From positions 11,883-75,882 of the forward strand of contig JAPLLY010000049.1 in the NCBI GenBank assembly GCA_026387315.1: DNA of 64,000 nt, in the 5' to 3' direction. The position numbers and the translations under genes were made by a program. The stretch comes from Candidatus Omnitrophota bacterium (lineage in GTDB: Bacteria > Omnitrophota > Gorgyraeia > Gygaellales > Profunditerraquicolaceae). Shown here one piece after another: positions 5,874 to 16,877 of the stretch. Under the pieces are notes generated by a model. The model was not told the DNA's origin. It saw only the letters and a program-made list of their open reading frames with translations, and did no database searches. How positions within the stretch are numbered: position 1 is the first letter of the stretch; every line of letters begins with the position of its first letter.

Positions 5874-6341
5874 GTGAGGTGTCCTTCTTGCGGAAATAAA
5901 GAAGATAAGGTGGTGGATTCCCGCGCTACAGCCGAGGAGTCAGCCGTCAGGCGCAGAAGAGAGTGTTTAAAGTGCGGCAAGCGGTTTACTACCTATGAAT
6001 ACGTGGAAGAGGTTTCTTTGCTGGTGATTAAGAAAGACGGCCGCCGAGAGGCCTTTGACCGCAAAAAGATTTTGGCTGGCATAATTCGCGCTTGCGAGAA
6101 AAGGCCGGTGAGCGTGGAGAAGATGGAAAATGTGGTTACCCAGGTTGAGCACTCCATCCAGAAAAAAAGCGATCGGGAAGTTCTAGCCAGCCGGATCGGC
6201 GAGCTGGTTATGGAGAAACTAAAATTAATTGACGACGTAGCCTACGTGCGCTTTGCTTCCGTATATCGCCAGTTTAAAGATGTGGGCCAATTCATGGTGG
6301 AGTTAAAGGATATTTTGGGCAAAGATAAAAAGAAGAGATAA
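5874..6341 (+). CDS. nrdR: transcriptional repressor NrdR
   Basis: 155 aa. N-terminal zinc ribbon MRCPSCG...CLKCGKRFTTYE plus an ATP-cone (VIKKDGRREAFDRKKI). Confidence 0.95.
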   Translation: MRCPSCGNKEDKVVDSRATAEESAVRRRRECLKCGKRFTTYEYVEEVSLLVIKKDGRREAFDRKKILAGIIRACEKRPVSVEKMENVVTQVEHSIQKKSDREVLASRIGELVMEKLKLIDDVAYVRFASVYRQFKDVGQFMVELKDILGKDKKKR

Positions 6342-6430
6342 GGGCTAGTTGGTCCTGAAAACACCCAAGCCACCCGCTAGCTGCGCATTTTGAGTTTGCC
6401 CAGAATAAGGTGCGGAAGTAAAGGTGGGAG

Positions 6431-6465
6431 GGGGCAGTTCTTGAATGAGGGCTGCCCCTTTTTTA
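6431..6465 (+). terminator. rho-independent terminator after nrdR
   Basis: GGGGCAG-13 nt-CTGCCCC followed by TTTTTTATTT. Confidence 0.6.
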
Positions 6466-6519
6466 TTTAGTTAGATTTTGCTAGCTCTTACGTCTATTGG
6501 CAGTAGAAGGAGGAATAAA

Positions 6520-7023
6520 ATGACTGATTTGATACCTATCGAATTGATATCAACCAAGATTTTGATATTAAGAGGGAAAAGAGTAATGTTGGATAAGGAT
6601 CTTGCTAAACTTTATGCTGTGCCTACAAAGGTTCTAAATCAATCTGTAAAAAGAAATATAAGGCGCTTCCCGATTGATTTTATGTTTCAATTAACAAAGT
6701 TAGAAAAATTGGAACTGGTCACAATTTGTGACCGGTTCAGGCTTTTGAAACATTCGACTGTTGAGCCTTATGTTTTCACAGAACAGGGCGTAGCGATGTT
6801 ATCAAGTGTGTTAAATAGCGAAAGAGCCATTTTGGTGAATATCCAGATTATGCGCGCATTCACTCAATTGCGCAGAATGCTTTTAACTAATGTAGATCTC
6901 AAGCGTAAAATTGAAGAAATGGAGCGTAAATATGATAAGCAATTCTTGATTGTTTTTAAAGTTATAAAGGAGCTCTTGGAGCCTCAGCCTATCCCTAATA
7001 AACCACCAATTGGATTCCGTTAA
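6520..7023 (+). CDS. ORF6N/ORF6C (KilA-N-like) DNA-binding protein
   Basis: RGKRVMLDKDLAKLYAVPTKVLNQSVKRNIRRFPIDFMFQL and FTEQGVAMLSSVL are typical of the ORF6N domain. ATG 6520 follows GGAGGA; the track start 6478 is less likely. Confidence 0.8.
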   Translation: MTDLIPIELISTKILILRGKRVMLDKDLAKLYAVPTKVLNQSVKRNIRRFPIDFMFQLTKLEKLELVTICDRFRLLKHSTVEPYVFTEQGVAMLSSVLNSERAILVNIQIMRAFTQLRRMLLTNVDLKRKIEEMERKYDKQFLIVFKVIKELLEPQPIPNKPPIGFR

Positions 7024-7033
7024 GTCAACACAG

Positions 7034-7231
7034 ATGAATATCGGGGAACAAATAGCGCAATTAAGGCATAAGGCAAGAATGAGCCAATTGGAACTGGCTA
7101 AGAAAGTCTCTACCAGCAGAACCGCTATAGCCCGCTATGAAAGTGGAGATTACAATAGATATAACGTGGGTACTTTGGCCAGAATCGCCCGGGCTTTGCA
7201 TAAGAGACTGAAAATATCATTTTCTGCTTAG
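7034..7231 (+). CDS. XRE-family helix-turn-helix regulator (possible controller protein)
   Basis: IGEQIAQLRHKARMSQLELAKKVSTSRTAIARYESG is a classic Cro/C1 HTH. ATG 7034 is preferred over the track start 7010. Confidence 0.75.
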   Translation: MNIGEQIAQLRHKARMSQLELAKKVSTSRTAIARYESGDYNRYNVGTLARIARALHKRLKISFSA

Positions 7232-7241
7232 CTTCTCGTAA

Positions 7242-7278
7242 TTACATCTTCCACAAAATGTAAAGCCATAAATTACAT
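7242..7278. promoter_or_regulatory. three TTACAT/ATGTAA half-sites between the XRE gene and the DpnI-like gene
   Basis: TTACAT (7242-7247), ATGTAA (7258-7263) and TTACAT (7273-7278), spaced 10 and 9 nt apart. Operator-like arrangement. Confidence 0.3.
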
Positions 7279-7455
7279 TGAAACCATGTCAAAAGAGAGT
7301 AAAATAAAAGTATCAAATATAGAAGTTAAGCAGGTAAATATATGATAGATGATCTAGAGTGGTATCGTTTGAAGGGGGAACTGCCACGTAAAAATAATTA
7401 AAACATTCGCTAGGAATAGCGGAGGTTTCTTGTTTTTTGAGGAGTAATTTTATAA

Positions 7456-8226
7456 ATGAAATTGGCTTTTAATAAACAGATTGCGCAGTCATATCACAGT
7501 GTTTCTCAGAAAATTCGTGTAATGGCGGAAGATTGGGTTAGCCGCGAAATCTTTTGTCCCGCCTGTGGTTGTAACATTAAACATTACGAAAATAACAGAC
7601 CTGTTGCTGATTTCTTTTGTTTAGATTGTAAAGAAGAATTTGAGTTAAAAAGTAAAAAGGATTCTATTGGTAACAAAATTGTAGATGGCGCGTATAGAAC
7701 GATGATTGAGCGGCTGCAAAGTAATAATAATCCTAATTTTTTCTTTCTAAATTATCACCTAAGAAGTTTTGAGGCCATAAATTTTTTCGTTATACCAAAG
7801 CATTTTTTTGTACCGCAGATAATTGAGAAAAGAAAACCTCTCGCTTTATCGGCAAGAAGAGCCGGTTGGATTGGATGTAATATTCTTCTGCAAAGAATCC
7901 CAGTTTCAGGAAGAATATTTTTGGTTAAGAACGCCCATGTTGAGTCGAAACAAAAAGTTCTTCGGGATTGGAAAAAGACCTTATTTTTAAGAGAAGAAAA
8001 AGATATAAAATCAAAAGGTTGGATTATTGATGTAATGAATTGTATCGAGCAGTTGGCCAAAAAAGAATTTACTCTTGATGAAGTTTATAATTTTGAAGCT
8101 GTTTTGCAGACCAAACACCAGAGCAATAGGCATATTAAAGACAAAATCCGCCAGCAGTTGCAGGTGCTTAGAGATAAAGGTTATTTGGAATTCGTTAGAA
8201 AAGGGCAATATAGAGTAATAAAGTAG
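7456..8226 (+). CDS. DpnI-like methyl-directed type IIM restriction endonuclease
   Basis: 256 aa. Long collinear matches to DpnI as I remember it: YCPxCG...NRPVADFxCxxCxEEFELKSKK, DGAYxTMxxRxQxxNNPNFFFL, RKPLAxxARRAGWIGCNI, GRIFLV, and a C-terminal winged helix HIKxKIRQQLQxLRDK. Confidence 0.85.
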   Translation: MKLAFNKQIAQSYHSVSQKIRVMAEDWVSREIFCPACGCNIKHYENNRPVADFFCLDCKEEFELKSKKDSIGNKIVDGAYRTMIERLQSNNNPNFFFLNYHLRSFEAINFFVIPKHFFVPQIIEKRKPLALSARRAGWIGCNILLQRIPVSGRIFLVKNAHVESKQKVLRDWKKTLFLREEKDIKSKGWIIDVMNCIEQLAKKEFTLDEVYNFEAVLQTKHQSNRHIKDKIRQQLQVLRDKGYLEFVRKGQYRVIK

Positions 8227-8241
8227 ATTAAGGAATTAATT

Positions 8242-8484
8242 ATGAATTTAGCTTTAAAAATACCCGCGTTTAGCGTGAAATTATTTTTGTGGTTGTCTCT
8301 TCCATTCAGTGATGATAATTTCGTGGTGGTTTGTAAAGGATACGGTGACGATTGGGATTATTATACCGGTTTATATTGGTATGAGGATAAAGATTTGGAA
8401 ACATGCTGGTATGAGGATTATCAAATTTGGTTATCCATAAATAAATCTTTTATCAAGAAATATTTATGGACGAAAATAAAGTAA
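8242..8484 (+). CDS. hypothetical W/Y/D-rich small protein
   Basis: 80-aa ORF 16 nt after the DpnI-like stop. No recognisable family. It occupies the position that dpnD holds in the pneumococcal DpnI cassette. Confidence 0.4.
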   Translation: MNLALKIPAFSVKLFLWLSLPFSDDNFVVVCKGYGDDWDYYTGLYWYEDKDLETCWYEDYQIWLSINKSFIKKYLWTKIK

Positions 8485-8564
8485 ATAAAAAAATATTATG
8501 TAATGAAAATGCGTTATTACCGCCATTGCTTAGCAATTTTATAGACTAGAGGGAAAGGGAAATT

Positions 8565-8726
8565 ATGGAAGATATTATTTGTCCTAAATGTAACGATGTG
8601 ATTAGGCCTGATAATGATTGGGATTTTATGGATGGTGAAAAACGTAAAATATCTTGTTTTTGTGGGCATAAATTCGTAGTTATTATCGAGCGGCCGATTG
8701 AATACTATATACTAGAGTCGGCATAG
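8565..8726 (+). CDS. 53-aa zinc-ribbon protein (not in the ORF track, below the size cut-off)
   Basis: ATG preceded by GGGAAAGGGA. Translation MEDIICPKCNDV...ISCFCGHKFVVIIERPIEYYILESA has CxxC...CxC. A paralogous 3' fragment lies at 9704-9779. Confidence 0.45.
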   Translation: MEDIICPKCNDVIRPDNDWDFMDGEKRKISCFCGHKFVVIIERPIEYYILESA

Positions 8727-8801
8727 TAGAAAGCTTTGTCTGTAAATTTTTAAAAATAGAAACGTTCAGAATTTAAATCTAAGTCTCTGAGAGGTAATAC
8801 A

Positions 8802-9668
8802 ATGTCATTTTCAGAAAACATTAAATTACAAGTAAAAGAAAAAGCTGCTTTTCGTTGTTGTAGGTGTCAGAATATAGGCATAGATGTTCATCATATTACT
8901 CCAGAAAAAGATGACGGACTCGATGATATTAGTAATGCAGCTCCTTTATGTCAGAATTGCCATGATCAATTTGGCGACAATCCTTCGAAACGAAAAGAGA
9001 TGGTTCAGATGAGGGATTGGTGGTATAAAAAATGCGAAATCAAATATTCAGCGCAGGATGTTATGTTGATGAGAGAAATGGTTTCAAAATTGGAAGAGAT
9101 TAAACATGGTAGCCAATCAGGAATTAATGAGTTAAAGCAAATTTTGAGAAATATACACAACAAAACTACTGATAAAGTAATTGATAAGCTATCTCGAGAA
9201 ACTGCTGATGCTACTGCTTCTGCAATAGTAAATAGCATTGATGCGATAGAACTTAGTCAGAAGCCATTCTTCTACGTTTATTACCTAGAAGAAGATTATT
9301 CATATCAAACTTCCATGAAAGGTAGAAACTTTAAAAATAAATGGTTTACATTGGAAGAAGATGGAAAAATGACAATAAAAAAAGGCTATGTATGGGATGG
9401 GTGCCCTCCAAAATATAAGATACGTGATCTTTATATCGGATTACAAGAAGGCTGTATAAATTTTGAAACAGGGAAAAGCAAAACTTATTATGCGTCTTTA
9501 GTTCACGATGTCTTTTATCAATTTAGCGTAGACATTAGATCGCTTGTTAGCCGTGGGGATGTCGACTACGAATTTTATTTACTGCTAAAGAGAGATAAAT
9601 TTACTTTCGCAGCACTTTATTACTTTAACGTACGATTATTTGGCTGGGTATGGTGGAATAGGAATTAA
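8802..9668 (+). CDS. HNH endonuclease fused to a C-terminal domain resembling DUF1353
   Basis: The N-terminus CCRCQNIGIDVHHITPEKDDGLDDISNAAPLCQNCHDQF is an HNH motif. The C-terminal GYVWDGCPP...SLVHDVFYQ resembles DUF1353; that assignment is tentative. Confidence 0.8.
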   Translation: MSFSENIKLQVKEKAAFRCCRCQNIGIDVHHITPEKDDGLDDISNAAPLCQNCHDQFGDNPSKRKEMVQMRDWWYKKCEIKYSAQDVMLMREMVSKLEEIKHGSQSGINELKQILRNIHNKTTDKVIDKLSRETADATASAIVNSIDAIELSQKPFFYVYYLEEDYSYQTSMKGRNFKNKWFTLEEDGKMTIKKGYVWDGCPPKYKIRDLYIGLQEGCINFETGKSKTYYASLVHDVFYQFSVDIRSLVSRGDVDYEFYLLLKRDKFTFAALYYFNVRLFGWVWWNRN

Positions 9669-9703
9669 GTATAGTGTTCCCTAATTTCCCTGATTTCAAA
9701 GTA

Positions 9704-9779
9704 ACTTGTTCCTGTGTGACATCAATTCTTAGTTATCATAGAGAGGCCGATTGAGTATTACGTGTCAGAGGCAAATTAG
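9704..9779 (+). pseudogene. frameshifted 3' remnant of a paralog of the 8565-8726 zinc-ribbon gene
   Basis: It reads ..TCSC then, after a 1-nt shift, HQFLVIIERPIEYYVSEAN*. The intact copy reads SCFCGHKFVVIIERPIEYYILESA*. Confidence 0.5.
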
Positions 9780-9856
9780 AAAAAAATAACGGTTGTTTTT
9801 TTTTGCATGCAGCGGCCGGAATCGCTGTGTAGGAAAGAATTGTTTTAGTAATTTGC

Positions 9857-10069
9857 GTGGAGACAAAAATGAAGATAAATAAATGTACGGAATGCGGGGG
9901 CGAAGACTTTTTTATTGAAGAAATGATTATTCATAAAGCTTCTCTTTATGCAGAAGATAAAGAATTGACCGTTTACAAAGAACAGACGTCCGGAATAGAA
10001 AGAATATATTGCACAAATTGTGATACAGAGTATTCGGAAGACGATTTTAAAAAAATAAATTTCAGATAG
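9857..10069 (+). CDS. small zinc-ribbon protein
   Basis: KCTECGG ... YCTNCD pairs of cysteines. An ATG at 9869 after GGAG is an alternative start. Confidence 0.5.
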   Translation: METKMKINKCTECGGEDFFIEEMIIHKASLYAEDKELTVYKEQTSGIERIYCTNCDTEYSEDDFKKINFR

Positions 10070-10129
10070 TGCTAATAATTCCGAGAGCTATTCCGGAGAT
10101 ATGCTACATAATTATTAGATCGATCTTTA

Positions 10130-10440
10130 GAACTAAGTAATGAGCGTCCGCTGAATGAATCGGGATAAGTCAGATAAGCAGACGCTTTCGCGCGCCAAGA
10201 TAAGCTCTTTGTAATCTAGCTGATTGAGATGTATCAGCCACAGCAATTTCCTGTTTAGCTGTGTAGCCTGGAGTGAGGATAAAGGAGCAATCCTTAAGCC
10301 TAAGCCACTCAACAAACCCGCCTTGCAAACCCGCCTTGGGCGGGGAGGCAAATCAGCAGACCGTAATGTGAATGAACCCGGATGTAGCCTCGTCACTCTA
10401 ATAAGTAGAGATGACCTCTTGAAAGTGGAGGGAAATCTAA
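10130..10440. other. GC-richer non-coding block with multiple short hairpins (candidate structured RNA or decayed gene)
   Basis: Hairpins seen: GCTGAT-8-ATCAGC, CACAGC-12-GCTGTG, CCCGCC-TTG-GGCGGG. Tandem AAACCCGCCTTG x2 (10314-10339). The only ORFs are low-complexity and overlap on both strands. Confidence 0.2.
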
Positions 10441-10876
10441 TAACTACTCTTTAAGGTAACAGGAAAACATAAGAATGGTTCTACTCGGGGTAGCAGGGAC
10501 GGTATGCTGGAAAAGATTAAAAAGGGAACTTGGGAGAGCCATTATAGCACAAGACATCTTCATATAAGGCAAAAACCGAAGTTGAGGAAATATTTAAAGA
10601 GATATTAGAGGTTACTCTTTCTCGTCAAGATAATAAAAGATAGCTTTTGGTGTTTTTTCTTTTTTTTAACGCGTTGATGATGGTTGGACTGAGCGTTCCA
10701 AGCTCAATAGAGGAAGAAGAAGAAACATTGACAAATAGTGATTTTTTGTATAACCTGTTATTTTTTAGGTAGACATTGGTTTTTATAAGCGGTTTTTCTC
10801 TCATAAAAAAAGTATATCATAATTTTAATATAAAACAAGGGCAATAAATAGAAACGGTCACTAGCTTTATTGAACC

Positions 10877-10893
10877 GTCGACAGTTTGTCGAC
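10877..10893. promoter_or_regulatory. perfect 7-3-7 inverted repeat GTCGACA-GTT-TGTCGAC upstream of the PLD gene
   Basis: Located 31 nt upstream of ATG 10924. Candidate operator. Confidence 0.3.
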
Positions 10894-10923
10894 AACTGAA
10901 ATTACTTTATAAATAACCAAAAA

Positions 10924-12516
10924 ATGAGACAACGTTGTTTTAAAATAGTATTTTTTATTATCCTTGCTTTGGCGTGTACAGCGAGTGCGGGGATTTTTTA
11001 TTGTTATGCTGAAGCTGTAAAAACACAGGGACAGTCCCCTGCGGGGACAGTCCCTGTTATGGGGACGCAGGCATTCGTTGAAGACTTAAGCGGGGATAAG
11101 TATTTTCCTGGGGTTAAAGAGGCTTTAGCAAAGGCGAAAAGCTCGATATATATGATGATGTATCTTGTAAATTTTGATGAAAAATCAAAGAAGTCTTTGG
11201 TTAATCAACTAGTTGATGAATTAGTTAACGCGAATAAACGGGGAGTCAAGGTAAAGGTAATCCTGGACCAGAATATTAGTTATATTAATTTGGGAAAGGG
11301 AAATGGTGAATGGGAGAGGGAAGAGAAAAATGAACCCTTGTTTTTATACCTAAAGAAGAATGGGATAGAGGTGTATTATGATAATCTTTTTATAACTACT
11401 CATAGTAAGGTTATGATTATTGATGAAGAAACAGTGATTTTGGGGAGCGCCAACTGGACGATGTCTTCTTTGAAAAGGAATTGGGAGGGGTCTTGTCTAA
11501 TCAGATCTAAAGAACTAGCCAAAGAATTCCTAAAAGATTCTGCTTCGATCTCCATAGATTATGAGGCAAGTATTCTTGACGAAGAAAGAAAGCCGCCGGT
11601 GCTGTTGAATCAGTATCTACTAAGGACTCCATCTTTAGTTCCCCATATGCTTACGAGTAATGATAAAGGGGCGTTTGATGTATATATGCTCTTATTGCGA
11701 AACTATGATAGTAATGCAGAAGGGAAGGTAGAAGTTGATTATAAGGTTTTTAGCCAGGAATTAGGTTATGATAAAAAATTGACTTATCGTTCAGCCAGTA
11801 AGAAAATAATGGGGGCTTTAGCGCGGCTTGAGCAGAGATATCAGCTTATTCTGCGTCAGAAGAGGCCCGCAAAAGGCCCTAATGTAATATTATTGGATTA
11901 TCCTAATAAAAGTCCGTATGTTTTATCTCGGGATGAGTATTTTTCTATTCCGGATGAATATTGGAAATATGGCTGGAATAAGAAGTTTTTATTTCGGGAG
12001 AGCTATTGTTATTTTATCGCGCGCTGTAAAGCAGGCGGCGTGAAAGGGCATATTTGGCGCGAGCATATAATCGGCTTAAGTAAGGAGTTTAATATAAACA
12101 GGAATACGATAGCAACGGGGATGCAATCTTTAAGAATGCTAAATATAATCGAGATTGACTATGCTCCCTATCTTCCTGAGGAAAATTTTAGGCATAGGGA
12201 AGCAAGTTTATTTAAATTGTTTAGGCTTTATTCTCCGGAGATTTTAGAAAAGGATAAGCAGAGGGTGAGAGAGTTATATGGTAAGAGCCGTTTTGAAGAA
12301 GCTGAAAGATTCGCCAAGATAGTTTTTAAAGGTAATGATACTCAAGTCATTGAAGATATTATCAAGAAAATAGATGAATATGGCGCTAAGCAGGTTAAGG
12401 ATGCTTTTAAGACTGTTTCTTTGAAGTCCATAGATAATCCGAAAAGAAGTTACAAATATGTAGTGGGGGTGCTTCAGAGTAGAGCTGAGGAAGCGGAAAA
12501 GGAGGAGTTAAGATGA
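10924..12516 (+). CDS. single-HKD phospholipase-D-family nuclease fused to two winged-helix-like modules and a DnaD-like C-terminus
   Basis: N-terminal hydrophobic anchor or signal (FKIVFFIILALACTASA). HKD motif HSKVMIIDEETVILGSANWT. Central and C-terminal replication-initiator-like wHTH segments (GLSKEFNINRNTIATGMQSLRMLNIIEI). The tail NPKRSYKYVVGVLQS resembles the DnaD/DnaB_2 motif. Confidence 0.75.
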   Translation: MRQRCFKIVFFIILALACTASAGIFYCYAEAVKTQGQSPAGTVPVMGTQAFVEDLSGDKYFPGVKEALAKAKSSIYMMMYLVNFDEKSKKSLVNQLVDELVNANKRGVKVKVILDQNISYINLGKGNGEWEREEKNEPLFLYLKKNGIEVYYDNLFITTHSKVMIIDEETVILGSANWTMSSLKRNWEGSCLIRSKELAKEFLKDSASISIDYEASILDEERKPPVLLNQYLLRTPSLVPHMLTSNDKGAFDVYMLLLRNYDSNAEGKVEVDYKVFSQELGYDKKLTYRSASKKIMGALARLEQRYQLILRQKRPAKGPNVILLDYPNKSPYVLSRDEYFSIPDEYWKYGWNKKFLFRESYCYFIARCKAGGVKGHIWREHIIGLSKEFNINRNTIATGMQSLRMLNIIEIDYAPYLPEENFRHREASLFKLFRLYSPEILEKDKQRVRELYGKSRFEEAERFAKIVFKGNDTQVIEDIIKKIDEYGAKQVKDAFKTVSLKSIDNPKRSYKYVVGVLQSRAEEAEKEELR

Positions 12517-12857
12517 TGCAATTTTTGGTCAGGTGGGGAATTGGCGCGTTGTCGATTTTTATTGTCGCGCACATTGTCAGGGGTATCGAGGTTTCCAGCA
12601 CCGCTACTGTCCTGGTGATTGCTCTGGTCTTGGGGATTATTAACGCTTTCTTGAGGCCTTTGATTATTCTGATTACTCTGCCGATTAATATCGTTACTTT
12701 AGGGGTATTTACCCTTTTTATCAACGGCGCTCTTTTTCTTCTGGTGTCTAAAATTGTCAAAGGCTTCGTGATTACGGGTTTCTGGCCGGCTTTTTGGGGC
12801 TATATCCTTTTCAGCATTATTAGTTTCTTGTTAAGCCTTTTAGTTGTTTCTGTTTAA
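12513..12857 (+). CDS. phage-holin-IV/DUF360-like four-TM membrane protein
   Basis: 114 aa with four hydrophobic helices. GIINAFLRPLIILITLPINIVTLGVFTLFINGALFLLVS is typical of this family. The ATG overlaps the PLD-gene TGA (ATGA at 12513-12516). Confidence 0.7.
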   Translation: MMQFLVRWGIGALSIFIVAHIVRGIEVSSTATVLVIALVLGIINAFLRPLIILITLPINIVTLGVFTLFINGALFLLVSKIVKGFVITGFWPAFWGYILFSIISFLLSLLVVSV

Positions 12858-12883
12858 ACCTAGGGAACGTTTTGGGTTATTTT

Positions 12884-12927
12884 AGATTCTTCGCCCGCCA
12901 CAGAATTAATGGCGGGCTCAGAATGAC
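12884..12927 (-). repeat. family-D nested hairpin (GTCATTCTGAG...-type, reverse orientation)
   Basis: ATTCT...AGAAT outer stem around a GCCCGCCA-9 nt-TGGCGGGC inner stem. Confidence 0.6.
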
Positions 12928-12936
12928 GAAAGGGAA

Positions 12937-13689
12937 ATGTCTAAATATTACACTGGCAGAAAAACCAAAAATTTATTTGATCCTCACAGTAAATTCCCCT
13001 TTAGGTTAAGCCGTTCTAAAATCGAACTATTCATGAATTGCCCGCGGTGCTTCTACTTGGATAGAAGATTAGGGGTGGGGCAGCCGCCAGGGTATCCGTT
13101 TACTTTAAACTCCGCGGTAGATAAATTGTTGAAGAAAGAATTTGATATCTATAGAGAAAAGCAGGCAGTCCATCCGCTTATGGAAAAGAATGGCATTAAG
13201 GCGGTTCCTTTTAGACACGAAAAGCTTAATTCTTGGCGGGATGCTCTGCATGGCGGGATAGAGTATTTACACGCGCCGACAAATCTTTTATTTTCAGGCG
13301 GAATAGATGATCTCTGGGTTTCAGCGGATGGCCAGCTATTTATCGTGGATTACAAGAGCACTTCCAAGGAAGAAGAGGTCAATATTGACGCGGATTGGCA
13401 GATCTCCTATAAGAGGCAGATGGAGATATACCAGTGGTTGTTCAGGAGAAATGTTTTTGTTGTGTCTTCAACGGGTTATTTTGTGTACTGTAACGGATTG
13501 ACCGATAGGGATGAATTTGGGGCTAAGCTGGATTTTAATATCAAGATCATACCTTATATTGGGGATGACAGTTGGATAGAGGGTACAATATTAGATCTAC
13601 ATAAGTGTTTAATGAGCGATATAGTTCCGGTAAGCGGCCAGGATTGCGATTTTTGTAAGTATGCCCAGGGAAGAAAAAGTGTGGAGTAA
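12937..13689 (+). CDS. Cas4-like PD-(D/E)XK nuclease with predicted Fe-S cysteines
   Basis: GGIDDLWV...FIVDYKST (D..D/ExK) and QMEIYQWL (QxxxY). Cys pairs CPRC near the N-terminus and CDFC at the C-terminus. Confidence 0.75.
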   Translation: MSKYYTGRKTKNLFDPHSKFPFRLSRSKIELFMNCPRCFYLDRRLGVGQPPGYPFTLNSAVDKLLKKEFDIYREKQAVHPLMEKNGIKAVPFRHEKLNSWRDALHGGIEYLHAPTNLLFSGGIDDLWVSADGQLFIVDYKSTSKEEEVNIDADWQISYKRQMEIYQWLFRRNVFVVSSTGYFVYCNGLTDRDEFGAKLDFNIKIIPYIGDDSWIEGTILDLHKCLMSDIVPVSGQDCDFCKYAQGRKSVE

Positions 13690-13737
13690 AGAGAAGGCCG
13701 CCTGGCACATTGTTTTTTTATCTAATGGGGGTAAGAT

Positions 13738-14091
13738 ATGTTTGAACTAAAACACCAAAAAATAGCTCCGGCTCCGGTATTCATAAAAAGGTTATTTATA
13801 TTTATTGGAATTGCCATTCTTTTGATCCTATTCGCTTTGTTTATTGGTATCGCCGGATATCATTGGATCGCTGGTTTTAGTTGGGTTGACGCGTTACTAA
13901 ACGCGTCAATGATCTTAGGCGGCATGGGCCCGGTTAATCCGCTGGTTAACGCCGGCGCGAAAATATTTGCCTCCGTATACGCTCTTTTTAGCGGCCTGGT
14001 ATTTATCGCGGTAATGGGAATTGTTTTTTCGCCAATTGTGCACAGAATGCTGCATAAATTTCATATCGATGACAGAGATTTACAGAAATAA
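13738..14091 (+). CDS. small 2-TM pore-loop (ion-channel-like) membrane protein
   Basis: TM1, then FSWVDALLNASMILGGMGPVNP, then TM2. This mirrors a K+-channel pore module, but the filter is MILGGMGPV instead of TVGYGD. Confidence 0.5.
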   Translation: MFELKHQKIAPAPVFIKRLFIFIGIAILLILFALFIGIAGYHWIAGFSWVDALLNASMILGGMGPVNPLVNAGAKIFASVYALFSGLVFIAVMGIVFSPIVHRMLHKFHIDDRDLQK

Positions 14092-14094
14092 TAA

Positions 14095-14233
14095 AGATAC
14101 CGCTCAAAAACTTGCGGCGCATATTAAAAAACTGGGGCAGTGCCGGAAGTGCCGGGGTATGTATCCTCCGGTGGTCAGCGGCGGCGCGGTGGTGTTAGTG
14201 CAGGCGCCTCATCGGAATTCCGGGGGCAGCTGA
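14095..14233 (+). pseudogene. possible decayed N-terminal fragment of a family-4 uracil-DNA glycosylase
   Basis: LAAHIKKLGQCRKCRGMYPPVVSGG..LVQAPHRNSGG loosely follows the UDG4 pattern CxxCxL...VxGxG...VGExPGxxEDxxG. It has no start codon of its own and is truncated. Confidence 0.25.
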
Positions 14234-14239
14234 TTAGAA

Positions 14240-14299
14240 TGGAAACTGTTTGATTGGAAACCGTTTGATTGTTGATTGTGCGCGGTTAAGTGGTATAAT
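14240..14299 (+). promoter_or_regulatory. tandem 15-mers plus extended -10 promoter upstream of azoR
   Basis: TGGAAACTGTTTGAT (14240-14254) and TGGAAACCGTTTGAT (14255-14269), then TTGATT (14272-14277), 16 nt, and TGgTATAAT (14291-14299). Confidence 0.4.
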
Positions 14300-14338
14300 A
14301 ATTTTAAAAATTAAGGCTATAGAGAGACGGAGGCAGGC

Positions 14339-14959
14339 ATGAAAAAACTTTTGCATATTATTGCCACGCCGCGCGCGGAGGAATCGCGCACATTGCAAGT
14401 ATCAGAGGCCTTCCTTAAAACTTTTAAGGAAAAACATTTGGATTGGGTTATTGATGAGCTGGATCTCTCTAAAGAAGAATTGCCTTCTCTTACCGTAAAG
14501 CGTTTAGATGGTAAATACATGCTTGCGGGAGGAAAAGACCTTAATGGAGAAATGAAAGAGGCTTGGCAGGAGATTGTCGTCCAGATCGAGCGGTTTATGT
14601 CGGCGGACGCCTACCTTATCAGTACTCCGATGTGGAATTTTAGTATTCCTCACAGATTAAAGCATTATCTGGATGTAATTTTACAGCCCAAATACCTGTT
14701 TCGTTATACGCCGACGGGAGTTGAGGGATTGGTGAAGAATAAAAAGCTAGTGGTAATCACCAGCCGTGGCGGCGACTATACAGATACCATGCGCAGCGCT
14801 GATTTTCAAGAGCCATATCTTCGGTTTGTTTTTGGTTTCATGGGTATTCAAGATATTACTTTTATTAATGCGCAACCCATGGATATGGGAGAGCCAGTGC
14901 AGGCGCAAAAAATAAAAGAAGCGCAAGAGGCGGCAAAAAAGATCGCCGCGCGATTGTAA
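14339..14959 (+). CDS. azoR: FMN-dependent NADH-azoreductase
   Basis: 206 aa. Flavodoxin-like N-terminus KKLLHIIATPRAEESRT, with PMWNFSIP and SRGG motifs. Confidence 0.85.
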   Translation: MKKLLHIIATPRAEESRTLQVSEAFLKTFKEKHLDWVIDELDLSKEELPSLTVKRLDGKYMLAGGKDLNGEMKEAWQEIVVQIERFMSADAYLISTPMWNFSIPHRLKHYLDVILQPKYLFRYTPTGVEGLVKNKKLVVITSRGGDYTDTMRSADFQEPYLRFVFGFMGIQDITFINAQPMDMGEPVQAQKIKEAQEAAKKIAARL

Positions 14960-14973
14960 AACCAGGGGGAGCA

Positions 14974-15387
14974 ATGATTGAGATGGAGTTAAGTAAGATT
15001 GTGATTGATGAGAAGAGGCATGATCAGTTGATTGCTTTAAAAGAAAAGGGGGGCACTAGGGTTTTACCGATTATTATTGGTTTAAATGAAGCCTCAGCCA
15101 TAAAATTAAAGATCAGCGGTTTTAATCCTCCGCGGCCATTGACCCATGATTTAATTTTTATGATTATTAAGGATTTTGAGGCGACCGTGGAAAAAGTTAT
15201 TATTGATAAGTTAGAAGAGAATACTTTTCACGCTAAGATTATTATTAAAACTGCCGGCGGTATTTTAAAGGCCATTGATGCCCGGCCAAGTGATAGTATC
15301 GCTTTGGCGGTGAGGTTTCACGCGCCGATCTTAGTTGAAGATGAGATTATCAAGCAGTATGAGCTGTTTAATAAAGAAAAAACTTAA
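14974..15387 (+). CDS. bifunctional nuclease family protein (DUF151)
   Basis: RPLTHDL and IDARPSDSIALAVR..APILV are signature segments. Confidence 0.85.
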   Translation: MIEMELSKIVIDEKRHDQLIALKEKGGTRVLPIIIGLNEASAIKLKISGFNPPRPLTHDLIFMIIKDFEATVEKVIIDKLEENTFHAKIIIKTAGGILKAIDARPSDSIALAVRFHAPILVEDEIIKQYELFNKEKT

Positions 15388-15393
15388 AATCCT

Positions 15394-15423
15394 GGGGACG
15401 GTTCTCGTAAGAGAACCGTCCCC
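15394..15423. terminator. family-B hairpin GGGGACGGTTCTC-GTAA-GAGAACCGTCCCC
   Basis: Perfect 13-bp stem, 7 nt after the upstream stop codon. Confidence 0.6.
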
Positions 15424-15431
15424 CTGTTCCT

Positions 15432-16877
15432 ATGCTTAAATTTAGCCTAAAAGATAAAAATATCTTAAACCCGATTTATAATTTCGCTAAAATAAAGAAA
15501 GTAAAATTATATCTGGTGGGCGGAGCTTTGCGGGATTTAATTTTAGATAGAACCAGGGAGAATCCGGATTTTGATTTTTGTTTAAAGAGAGGCGCTTTAA
15601 GTTTTGGCCGTAAGTTGGCTAAAGAATTAAGATGCGCCTTTGTAATTTTAGACCAAGAGCATGCTGCCTGCCGTTTAGTTAAGAAGATAGATAAGAAGAT
15701 TCATACCTTTGATTTTTCGGATTTCCGCGCCGCGACTTTAGAAAAAGACCTCCTGCACCGGGATTTTACCATAAACTCCATGGCCGTGGCCTTAGAGGAT
15801 GTATTTAAGCGCCAAGATTTAGATACTTCGATTATTGACCCGTATTCCGGTAGAGTTGATCTTAAAGCTAAAATAATCAAGGTTACCGGGCCCGGCTCTT
15901 TTAAGGAAGACCCCTTAAGGATCCTGCGGGCTTTTAGTTTTAGCTGTACGCTTGGTTTTGATTTAGATCCAGCAACATTACGCTTGGCCAAAAAAGAAAA
16001 AAATAAGATTGCCCTGGTATCCAGCGAACGTATTCGTGAAGAATTATTTAAGATTCTGGACAGTTCAACGGCTTATGTTTCTTTGGTCAGCCTGGATAAG
16101 CTAAGGATTTTAGAGATTATTTTTCCGGAAATCAAGCCGATGCGCGGGATCGGGCAGGGGCCCTACCATCATCTGGATGTCTGGCAGCACTCTTTAGAAA
16201 CTTTGAGTCAATTTGAGCTAATTATTAAGGGGGCCAAAAAGGCTGCTGGGATAGATGATTATTTGCGGGAGGAAATCGCGGGTTCGCGTAGAAGATCCAG
16301 CCTTTTAAAATTAGCTTGTATTTTGCATGATATCGGCAAGCCTAAGGCTTTGCGCCGGGAAAAAGGAAAAATTATTTTCCATGGGCATGAAAGAATAGGT
16401 TTAGGCCTAATGCGCGTAATTTCGCGCAGATTAAAATTATCTAATGATGAGGGGCGCGTTTTAGAAAGGATTGTGCTCTGGCATCTAAGGCCGGGGTATC
16501 TGGCGAATAACCCGCATCCAACTGAGCGGGCGATTTTTCGTTATTTTCGCGATACCGGCAATGAGGCTTTAGCCGTGCTGCTATTATCTTTGGCTGATCA
16601 GCGTGCCACTAAAGGGCCGCAGGCCACAGCGCTATCTCGCCTGCGCCATGAGAAGACAGTTAAGGCTTTGATCCGTAAATTATTAAAGCAAAAAGACCAA
16701 AAGAAAATCGAGCGTTTTTTAAACGGTAATCATCTTATGCGTAAATTTAAATTGCCGGCTTCGCCTCTGATTGGTAAACTGTTAATGGAACTGGAGGAGG
16801 CTCAGGCCATCGGTAAGATTAAGAATAAGCAAGAGGCTTGGCAGCTAGCCGCTAAACTAATCAAATTGCGGAAATGA
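15432..16877 (+). CDS. cca: CCA-adding enzyme / tRNA nucleotidyltransferase with HD domain
   Basis: GGALRDLILDR, RDFTINSMA and ILHDIGKP (HD) motifs. Confidence 0.85.
   Translation: MLKFSLKDKNILNPIYNFAKIKKVKLYLVGGALRDLILDRTRENPDFDFCLKRGALSFGRKLAKELRCAFVILDQEHAACRLVKKIDKKIHTFDFSDFRAATLEKDLLHRDFTINSMAVALEDVFKRQDLDTSIIDPYSGRVDLKAKIIKVTGPGSFKEDPLRILRAFSFSCTLGFDLDPATLRLAKKEKNKIALVSSERIREELFKILDSSTAYVSLVSLDKLRILEIIFPEIKPMRGIGQGPYHHLDVWQHSLETLSQFELIIKGAKKAAGIDDYLREEIAGSRRRSSLLKLACILHDIGKPKALRREKGKIIFHGHERIGLGLMRVISRRLKLSNDEGRVLERIVLWHLRPGYLANNPHPTERAIFRYFRDTGNEALAVLLLSLADQRATKGPQATALSRLRHEKTVKALIRKLLKQKDQKKIERFLNGNHLMRKFKLPASPLIGKLLMELEEAQAIGKIKNKQEAWQLAAKLIKLRK

Follow-up and report, generated by a model that had tools for sequence, protein, structure and literature searches.

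What would the DNA-binding fold of a plasmid replication initiator be doing on a polypeptide that begins with a predicted export signal and a nuclease domain, and is the holin-like gene that overlaps its stop codon a partner or a bystander? Both questions are raised by a 530-amino-acid (aa) open reading frame (ORF) at positions 10924-12516 (+) of a 64,000-nucleotide (nt) stretch of Candidatus Omnitrophota DNA (assembly GCA_026387315.1, contig JAPLLY010000049.1, positions 11,883 to 75,882), the whole of which we call the window. A preliminary description of the window had divided the ORF into an N-terminal signal or anchor, a single Nuc-type HKD nuclease of the phospholipase D (PLD) superfamily, two Rep-like winged helices and a DnaD-like tail, and had coupled it to a 114-aa ORF at 12513-12857 (+) as an abortive-infection module. 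Both ORFs are present in the ORF list at these coordinates and overlap in an ATGA at 12513-12516, and the two strings that the description quoted were found, HSKVMIIDEETVILGSANWT spanning aa 160-179 and NPKRSYKYVVGVLQS spanning aa 505-519. The four parts are supported by our analyses, the DnaD likeness of the tail weakly so, and the two-gene coupling is not. We consider it moderately probable that the product leaves the cytoplasm as a Nuc-type nuclease, probably a dimer, which holds DNA via a Rep-derived winged-helix (WH) module, and that its gene is accessory cargo of a genomic island. The gene and its parts are as follows.

10924..12516, + strand: PLD-Rep-like gene of an accessory Omnitrophota family, with a signal peptide, a Nuc-type PLD nuclease, RepE-like tandem winged helices and a helical tail
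10924..11013, + strand: predicted signal peptide of Sec type, or signal anchor (aa 1-30, reading MRQRCFK, a hydrophobic run, then CYA/E, the slash marking the putative cleavage site)
11062..11559, + strand: single-HKD PLD nuclease domain (aa 47-212), from Pfam PLDc_2 and from PDB sequence and Foldseek matches
11596..12228, + strand: tandem winged-helix module with the fold of iteron-plasmid initiators (WH1, aa 225-332; WH2, aa 333-435), from AlphaFold2 and Foldseek
12229..12513, + strand: five-helix C-terminal tail with the motif NPKRSY.YVVGIL, weakly DnaD/DnaB_2-like, from predicted secondary structure and weak profile matches

Because relatives align with the 530-aa ORF at 38-91% identity across 90-99% of its length, it is no chance frame. 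Alignments of 35 and then 111 members kept all of the parts, i.e., the hydrophobic N-terminus, the catalytic motif and the C-terminal 300 aa with the NPKRSY.YVVGIL motif of the tail. In a full-length AlphaFold2 model built with the 111 sequences (mean pLDDT 86.8, pTM 0.77), aa 5-22 form a helix and the linker at aa 23-46 is disordered. We found this architecture (signal, Nuc-type PLD and Rep-like module) described nowhere in the searchable literature; the closest described designs are the secreted Nuc and NucT nucleases and the restriction enzymes that join a PLD domain to a sensor.

The catalytic HxK(x)4D(x)6GSxN motif of the nuclease domain lies at 11401-11460, where HSKVMIIDEETVILGSAN (aa 160-177) satisfies the pattern HxK(x)4D(x)6G(S/T)xN, and across the 111 sequences H160 and K162 are invariant and D167, G174, S175 and N177 are each conserved in at least 90%. 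Pfam PLDc_2 matches aa 65-204 (E 5.6e-26, 91.4 bits vs a cut-off of 27), with one HKD per chain in the window protein. Sequence-profile matches in the PDB were headed by mouse Zucchini/MitoPLD (E 4.6e-14), Salmonella Nuc (2.6e-13) and H. pylori NucT (1.6e-10), and Foldseek matched Nuc (1byr) with E 8.8e-9 and a target TM-score of 0.75, Zucchini and NucT being next. The intact motif and these matches bear out the Nuc-type single HKD motif that had been proposed for this protein. Models from NCBIfam and PADLOC (DrmC, NucT and cardiolipin synthases) match the PLD part alone and all far under their curated cut-offs, and the median isoelectric point (pI) of the domain is 6.0 across the family. The domain most likely forms a homodimeric, metal-independent phosphodiesterase that cuts nucleic acid. 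A two-HKD active site formed between two chains is suggested since two members of the family, P0213 and P0217 (657-666 aa), have a tandem pair of HKD domains between the signal peptide and the Rep-like module, presumably an intramolecular version of the dimeric active site.

Nuc is periplasmic and NucT is membrane-associated. Nuc of pKM101 (1byr) and NucT of H. pylori (6ehi) have in common with the window family the single-HKD PLD fold and an N-terminal export signal (a predicted one in the window family), and both are nucleases and not lipid enzymes; Nuc, like the island-borne window gene, is also carried on a mobile element. They differ in being catalytic domains only, of about 155-180 aa, whereas the window family adds a module of 300 aa that is RepE-like and weakly DnaD-like. 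Zucchini/MitoPLD (4ggj, 4ggk) likewise has an N-terminal hydrophobic anchor with a single-HKD nuclease domain immediately after it, but it is a eukaryotic protein of the mitochondrial outer membrane and lacks a DNA-binding extension.

The C-terminal half is recognised by fold. No Pfam family matched aa 205-530 at E up to 1, which includes a lack of Rep_3 membership by sequence, and a PDB sequence-profile search with the C-terminal part returned only Crp/FadR-type helix-turn-helix (HTH) proteins (E 0.14-0.4); an hhalign comparison of the C-terminal profile with an O-like HTH_36 protein encoded nearby in another family locus (L005) was insignificant (probability 4%). Yet the two replication-organiser winged helices of the preliminary description stand at the level of structure. 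When aa 222-530 were modelled apart by AlphaFold2 with 55 sequences from the fetched loci, the model reached a pLDDT of 93.1 and a pTM of 0.89, and 24 of its 25 first Foldseek matches in the PDB were RepE54 or Rep-DNA complexes (8ac8, 8aan), the other being an RNA polymerase III entry. The matches to the RepE-type fold have E values of 3.6e-4 to 4e-3, a probability of 1.0 and target TM-scores of 0.50-0.59 over 200-235 columns. In BFVD, a collection of predicted viral structures, the best matches are phage proteins named 'Replication initiator protein', 'Replication protein O' and 'COG5527 initiation of plasmid replication', and HTH proteins, and they align over 240-290 of the 309 residues. Both winged helices are basic across the family (median pI 9.25 for WH1 and 9.24 for WH2). 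The tandem WH1-WH2 fold and its basic domains are thus held in common with RepE of mini-F and the initiators of iteron plasmids (1rep, 8ac8, 8aan); unlike RepE, the window family has neither Rep_3 membership nor iterons nor a replicon, and its module is the C-terminal part of a fusion that begins with a signal peptide and a nuclease. No iteron arrays were present in the window or in 61 flanks of family genes, and an origin with iterons beside the gene was rejected as a candidate on that count.

The tail gave recurrent signals, all of them sub-threshold. Among 54 members it matched Pfam DnaB_2 (PF07261) in seven (best E 9e-4) and a PHROG family of DnaD-like helicase loaders in 13 (best E 1.3e-3), and three PHROG families named 'replication initiation protein' in 12, nine and seven. 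PDB sequences yielded no DnaD chain for the tail, only spurious uS7 matches. The earlier DnaD assignment thus has weak support from recurrent Pfam and PHROG signals and none from PDB sequences, and we regard the likeness to DnaD as plausible.

The hydrophobic N-terminal segment of the preliminary description is present in the window protein and is kept across 109 relatives with complete N-termini, for which signal peptides were called by heuristics (charge, hydrophobic run and the (-3,-1) rule) and not by SignalP. In these relatives the net charge of the residues preceding the hydrophobic run averages +2.2, and that of the 15 residues after it averages -0.9. The uncharged run itself (median 20 aa) is often split by an Arg into a core of 13-16 aa and a short c-region. 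A site that obeys the (-3,-1) rule lies near residue 28 in 100 of the 109 (e.g., SYA/E, CYA/Q and CFA/A). By the positive-inside rule this charge pattern predicts an N-in, C-out orientation, which would place most of the protein beyond the cytoplasm, and from such sequence features we infer that the 530-aa product may be exported through Sec.

Whether such a signal is peculiar to one fusion can be judged from an exhaustive search with a profile of the C-terminal half, which gave 1,127 cluster representatives at 50% identity, 525 of them at E <= 1e-10. Among the best 148 of the 1,127 with sequence, the HKD motif occurs in 109, and in 89 of those the start is complete and the N-terminus strongly hydrophobic. 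All of the variants found in this way with a complete N-terminus and a PLD domain keep the signal sequence, and four further proteins (P0223, P0231, P0256 and P0261) have a typical signal peptide with a short core joined straight to the Rep-like module, without any PLD. The topological paradox noted at the outset, a secretion signal on a chain with DNA-binding modules, is thus real and persists in architectural variants, and because the signal is found on two-PLD and PLD-less proteins as well, a predicted export signal on the Rep-like module is a recurring theme and not the accident of one fusion.

In the mechanism that we favour, the conserved N-terminal signal peptide or anchor would send the 530-aa product through Sec, its single-HKD domains would pair into a homodimeric phosphodiesterase cutting nucleic acid, and the basic C-terminal half, WH1-WH2 with the helical tail, would most likely hold DNA for the nuclease. 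The enzyme would act on DNA in the periplasm or at the cell surface, and its target would be incoming or extracellular DNA and not the chromosome of its own cell. If export holds, a fold so far known solely in cytoplasmic initiators of replication would be at work outside the cell, attached to a nuclease, in a large family (more than 1,100 cluster representatives at 50% identity), and this would be a new way of targeting extracellular or incoming DNA in a poorly known and largely uncultured phylum.

The distribution of the family is that of accessory cargo. A word-seeded search gave 187 proteins, of which the best 120, those aligned at 38-91% identity, are mostly 480-540 aa long; where the sources give a name, it is nearly always Candidatus Omnitrophota. 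A scan of GTDB species genomes gave 307 encoding loci, mostly in Omnitrophota metagenome-assembled genomes, with some labelled Planctomycetia, Elusimicrobia, Auribacterota or Verrucomicrobia. Matches at E <= 1e-10, PLD-only matches being counted, occur in 71 of 201 sampled Omnitrophota genomes; of five other genomes of the same genus in that sample only one has the family, as a split pseudogene containing a TGA. Several genomes hold two to six matches, many of them fragments, and pseudogenes are frequent in the family. The window's own genome has three copies, all beside genes of defence or mobile genetic elements (RadC, Mrr, RhuM, Bro-N and a helicase-restriction endonuclease), namely the window gene, a second full-length paralogue (28% identity) in the order YgjP/SprT, paralogue, unknown gene, helicase-restriction endonuclease, and a short form of 383 aa, which lies in the order RadC, Mrr, RhuM, short form, c2, Bro-N, c9, tRNA-Ser, where c2 and c9 are small proteins described below. 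That the gene is a syntenic housekeeping gene of the core genome was rejected, given how patchily it is distributed and that it has pseudogenes and paralogues. In a separate case of the same kind, 20 kb of another Omnitrophota genome (G025:C11:24552-44171) contains at least six full or fragmentary family copies, some with in-frame stops, which suggests local duplication and decay.

The company kept at other loci is of a piece with this. Type I restriction-modification (RM) systems, AbiE, GmrSD, Fic and ORF6N/PDC-S05 are neighbours there, and PADLOC run on family neighbourhoods reported PDC-S05, PDC-S01, AbiEi/AbiEii, SoFic and a type I restriction endonuclease. In a Pfam tally of 148 neighbours within three genes, the most frequent families were ORF6N (five), AAA_14 (five), AbiEii (four), DUF4143 (four), and ResIII, Fic and PDDEXK_1 (three each); no Pfam family occurred in more than five loci, and a conserved operon partner belonging to a Pfam family was rejected. 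A tRNA gene lies upstream on the same strand in six loci, at 0.3-1.9 kb in five and at 6.8 kb in L001, where a serine recombinase adjoins it. No full-length family gene was found on viral contigs, in phage records or on plasmids, and residence on phages or plasmids was rejected: viral contigs gave PLD-only fragments, the phage collection gave zero matches, and plasmids gave one distant standalone WH protein. The nuclease gene is accessory, fast-turnover cargo of hypervariable defence and mobile islands, and if its product is indeed exported, this setting makes the family a candidate for a layer of defence that acts before DNA entry.

One small protein recurs beside the family, and it is the only recurrent neighbour. 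This protein, c2, is acidic (52 aa, pI about 4.5-4.7; consensus M.EGGFLVKFDGKEV.RCFAVAFDYD.W.YTIN...ITIEVE) and lacks both a signal peptide and a Pfam assignment. Among the fetched loci, 18 contain 19 copies in all that share the strand of the family member, and about ten of these lie within 150 bp of it; of the 201 phylum genomes, 15 have it, with 16 copies, nine of which lie no more than 1 kb from a same-strand family member and eight of these nine within 250 bp. It is absent from the window, and examples are at L001:7827-7979, L010:2310-2471, L083:7478-7642 and, in the window's own genome, G000:C52:47567-47725. Here lies the real recurrent partner to which the neighbourhoods point, and c2 might be a nuclease inhibitor, an immunity protein or an export chaperone. 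A second small island protein, c9, is basic (about 65 aa, W.PVRI.KETDKAILV..K.WIPKS), has weak bPH_11 and phrog_8389 matches, and lies within 0.06-2.5 kb of family members in six loci (e.g., L003:6808-7056, L059:3073-3291 and L088:3652-3837, the last from contig C52 of the window's own genome).

What an exported nuclease of this kind would do for its host can be ranked only loosely. A barrier to foreign DNA, or competition with it, is the role to which we tentatively incline; scavenging or processing of extracellular DNA is a possible but doubtful one, and other roles take up what remains. A bolder version, in which the initiator fold has been recruited to the extracytoplasmic side as a DNA-targeting module, the enzyme is a periplasmic and possibly sequence- or structure-directed barrier against mobile-element or transforming DNA, and c2 is its cytoplasmic inhibitor or immunity protein, strikes us as rather unlikely as a whole. 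Several observations weigh against an exported DNA-holding nuclease. The evidence for export comes from sequence heuristics; the RepE/DnaD-like module is otherwise a cytoplasmic device; and standalone Rep-like modules without a signal peptide exist (P0166, P0159, P0173 and P0212), the start of P0166 being confirmed by upstream stops. A 287-aa standalone WH protein on an Arthrobacter plasmid adjoins a type ISP RM enzyme, the defence-island setting is equally expected of a cytoplasmic restriction-like enzyme, and PLD domains can act on lipids too.

Several of these points would suit a membrane-tethered, restriction-type enzyme on the cytoplasmic face, one that cuts invading DNA inside the cell with a PLD domain and a WH sensor in the manner of BfiI, the PLD-wH type IV enzymes and END, an explanation that we hold to be unlikely. 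An N-terminal PLD domain followed by a variable C-terminal DNA sensor is a known defence design (PMC12191111, PMC11037411), the PLD part here matches DrmC and MkoB/C models, the neighbourhoods are rich in RM, abortive-infection (Abi) and toxin-antitoxin genes, and the signal-less standalone WH modules lie beside RM and toxin-antitoxin genes. Against that, the positive-inside rule and the n/h/c organisation of the N-terminus predict for about 90% of members that most of the chain is extracytoplasmic, a conserved cognate methyltransferase gene is missing from its surroundings, and the WH pair resembles RepE and not the DpnI-type wH. BfiI, the PLD-wH enzymes Aba4572I and CbaI (PMC11037411) and END (PMC12191111) do share with the window family an N-terminal PLD, a C-terminal DNA-recognition module and residence in defence islands, but they recognise DNA through a pseudobarrel, a DpnI-like wH or an EndoIII-like domain, and not through a RepE-like WH pair and helical tail. 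The PLD-wH and END enzymes are taken to be cytoplasmic because neither PMC11037411 nor PMC12191111 mentions a signal peptide, and unlike those presumed cytoplasmic enzymes the window family has, by our heuristic estimate, a conserved signal-peptide-like N-terminus.

As another alternative, the protein could be a membrane-attached initiator of replication or mobilisation for an integrative element. Its WH pair would then recognise an origin, its DnaD-like tail would bring in factors for helicase loading, and its PLD domain would cut and reseal DNA via a phosphohistidine intermediate, like the poxvirus nicking-joining enzyme. The RepE- or phage O-like fold over nearly the whole C-terminal half, the weak recurrent DnaD and replication-initiation PHROG matches, a PLD profile match to a chain named 'virion nicking-joining enzyme', the position of the gene near the tRNA-proximal end of the island in six loci, and the serine recombinase (L001) and HTH_36 O-like initiator (L005) among the neighbours would all fit. 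We nevertheless judge it improbable: the window and the 61 flanks show no iteron arrays beside the gene, full-length genes were not found on viral contigs, phages and plasmids, recombinase or conjugation genes do not recur in the 148-neighbour tally, many copies are fragments among unrelated cargo, and an N-in signal peptide is incompatible with a cytoplasmic initiator. More improbable still is a lipid-acting PLD of the cardiolipin or phosphatidyl-transfer type whose C-terminal half has a role other than DNA binding. Weak NCBIfam matches to cardiolipin synthases, one source that names a homologue 'cardiolipin synthase', and a domain tethered close to the membrane in most homologues point that way; those matches, however, fall far short of the curated cut-offs, single-HKD nucleases give the best matches in both sequence and fold, bacterial cardiolipin synthases have two HKD motifs, and the C-terminal domains here are basic and Rep-like.

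The two-gene abortive-infection module, a membrane-anchored nuclease and DNA sensor coupled to a holin-like pore, had the ATGA overlap, a strong PF04020 match and the defence-island setting in its favour, but it has already been refuted as a conserved system and is left with next to no probability, since DUF360 does not co-occur beyond the window and L007, where a PD-(D/E)XK gene intervenes, L011 is without it, its orthologues lie beside unrelated genes, and the overlap was made by a cassette with its own Shine-Dalgarno sequence. The identity proposed for the 114-aa ORF was correct: it matches PF04020 (Phage_holin_4_2/DUF360) along profile positions 1-104 of 105 (E 1.3e-29, 103.3 bits vs a cut-off of 28.8), and four transmembrane helices are predicted in it. 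Most PF04020 members are uncharacterised bacterial membrane proteins, and no lysis cassette or endolysin was present near the window's DUF360 gene. Co-occurrence was assessed by calling ORFs in all of the fetched loci (about 60, with about 1,300 neighbour ORFs) and searching them by jackhmmer with the window DUF360 protein. DUF360 lay near a family member in only two of the roughly 60 loci, the window and L007 (nuclease 82% identical), and the orders differ, L007 having the nuclease, PD-(D/E)XK and then DUF360. In L011 (81% identity) the order is nuclease, PD-(D/E)XK, ORF6N, with no DUF360 nearby, and three distant homologues on long contigs are followed downstream by GmrSD, Fic and type I RM, by DUF3644, type I RM and RadC, and by RadC, AbiE and RM. 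PF04020 is not among the most frequent families in the Pfam tally of 148 neighbours. Conversely, DUF360 is found patchily, in seven of 26 genomes of the same taxonomic family; orthologues of 91%, 83% and 66% identity in G095, G202 and G203 have neighbours unrelated to the first 30 kb of the window, and G095 has DUF360 without any member of the nuclease family.

How the overlap arose is visible in the DNA itself. Nucleotide homology of the window to the nuclease genes of L007, L008 and L011 ends at 12499, and from 12497 onward its match is instead with L007's DUF360 gene, leader and ORF, which follows PD-(D/E)XK there; the junction thus lies at about 12499. The 3' end of the nuclease ORF, ...GAAGCGGAAATAGGCTAA in L007 and L011, reads ...GAAGCGGAAA and then, across the junction, AGGAGGAGTTAAGATGATG in the window, so that past the junction the nuclease ORF runs through the Shine-Dalgarno and start that belong to DUF360. 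The ATGA overlap is a cassette scar, because the junction alignment shows that the DUF360 leader replaced the last codons and stop of the nuclease, and DUF360 is a separate small cassette that landed on the nuclease 3' end and does not form a functional pair with it. DUF360 as a conserved partner was rejected by the jackhmmer search, the neighbourhood listing, the Pfam tally, the family survey and the junction alignment alike, and neither the nuclease-holin pairing nor the abortive-infection logic built upon it can be kept. A single ATGA overlap is poor ground for inferring 'holin-coupled' nuclease pairs, and a false lead is thereby removed. As observations on the element itself, the DUF360 gene acts as a movable cassette of 361 bp (window 12497-12857 vs L007:3552-3912) that stands after the PD-(D/E)XK gene in L007 and before it in the window, and in G215 an orthologue of 91% identity lies 1.3 kb from a DpnI gene of 69% identity.

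The surroundings of the gene comprise the following further features.

6342..14970, no strand: genome-specific accessory island in an insertion hotspot, bounded by nrdR (5874-6341) on one side and by a 137-aa gene with the CCA-enzyme gene (14974-16877) on the other
10220..10371, + strand: group II intron D1-D4 fragment (Rfam RF02003, 66.4 bits vs a gathering threshold of 49, E 2.3e-12)
11025..11057, + strand: in-frame palindromic hairpin element of 31-33 nt, within the linker that joins the signal peptide to the PLD domain (aa 35-45), an insertion relative to most homologues
12497..12857, + strand: DUF360/Phage_holin_4_2 cassette, made up of a GGAGG leader (12497-12512) and the 114-aa ORF with four transmembrane helices (12513-12857)
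12937..13689, + strand: PD-(D/E)XK/Cas4-like nuclease gene, which in the closest relatives, L007 and L011, is directly downstream of the PLD gene

The island is about 8.6 kb long, with a GC content of 0.33-0.39, and carries ORF6N/PDC-S05, an XRE HTH gene, DpnI, HNH, the group II intron fragment and the PLD-Rep-like gene, and after these DUF360, the PD-(D/E)XK gene, a 117-aa membrane protein and a flavodoxin-like reductase. It is an insert at a hotspot, because the gap from nrdR to the CCA-adding-enzyme gene is 450-580 bp in five genomes of the same genus, which fits the 137-aa gene, as against 9.09 kb in the window; two further genomes have other inserts, of 1.8 and 2.9 kb, at the same hotspot (loci noted for this interval: G230:C84 and G225:C49). 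The intron fragment sits in an 850-nt gene-free gap upstream of the PLD gene, without an intron-encoded protein ORF nearby or a match to domains V/VI, and is probably a decayed or ORF-less fragment. The hairpin in the linker, CAGGGACAGTCCCCTGCGGGGACAGTCCCTG (31 nt in the window gene), has three copies in the genome vs zero for a control pattern, the others being at G000:C52:38068-38098 and G000:C59:24375-24405, and in the relative L008 it lies outside the gene, in intergenic DNA (L008:350-390). The linker that bears it is a low-confidence region of the structure model, and the hairpin appears to be a small dispersed element that is tolerated within a coding linker.

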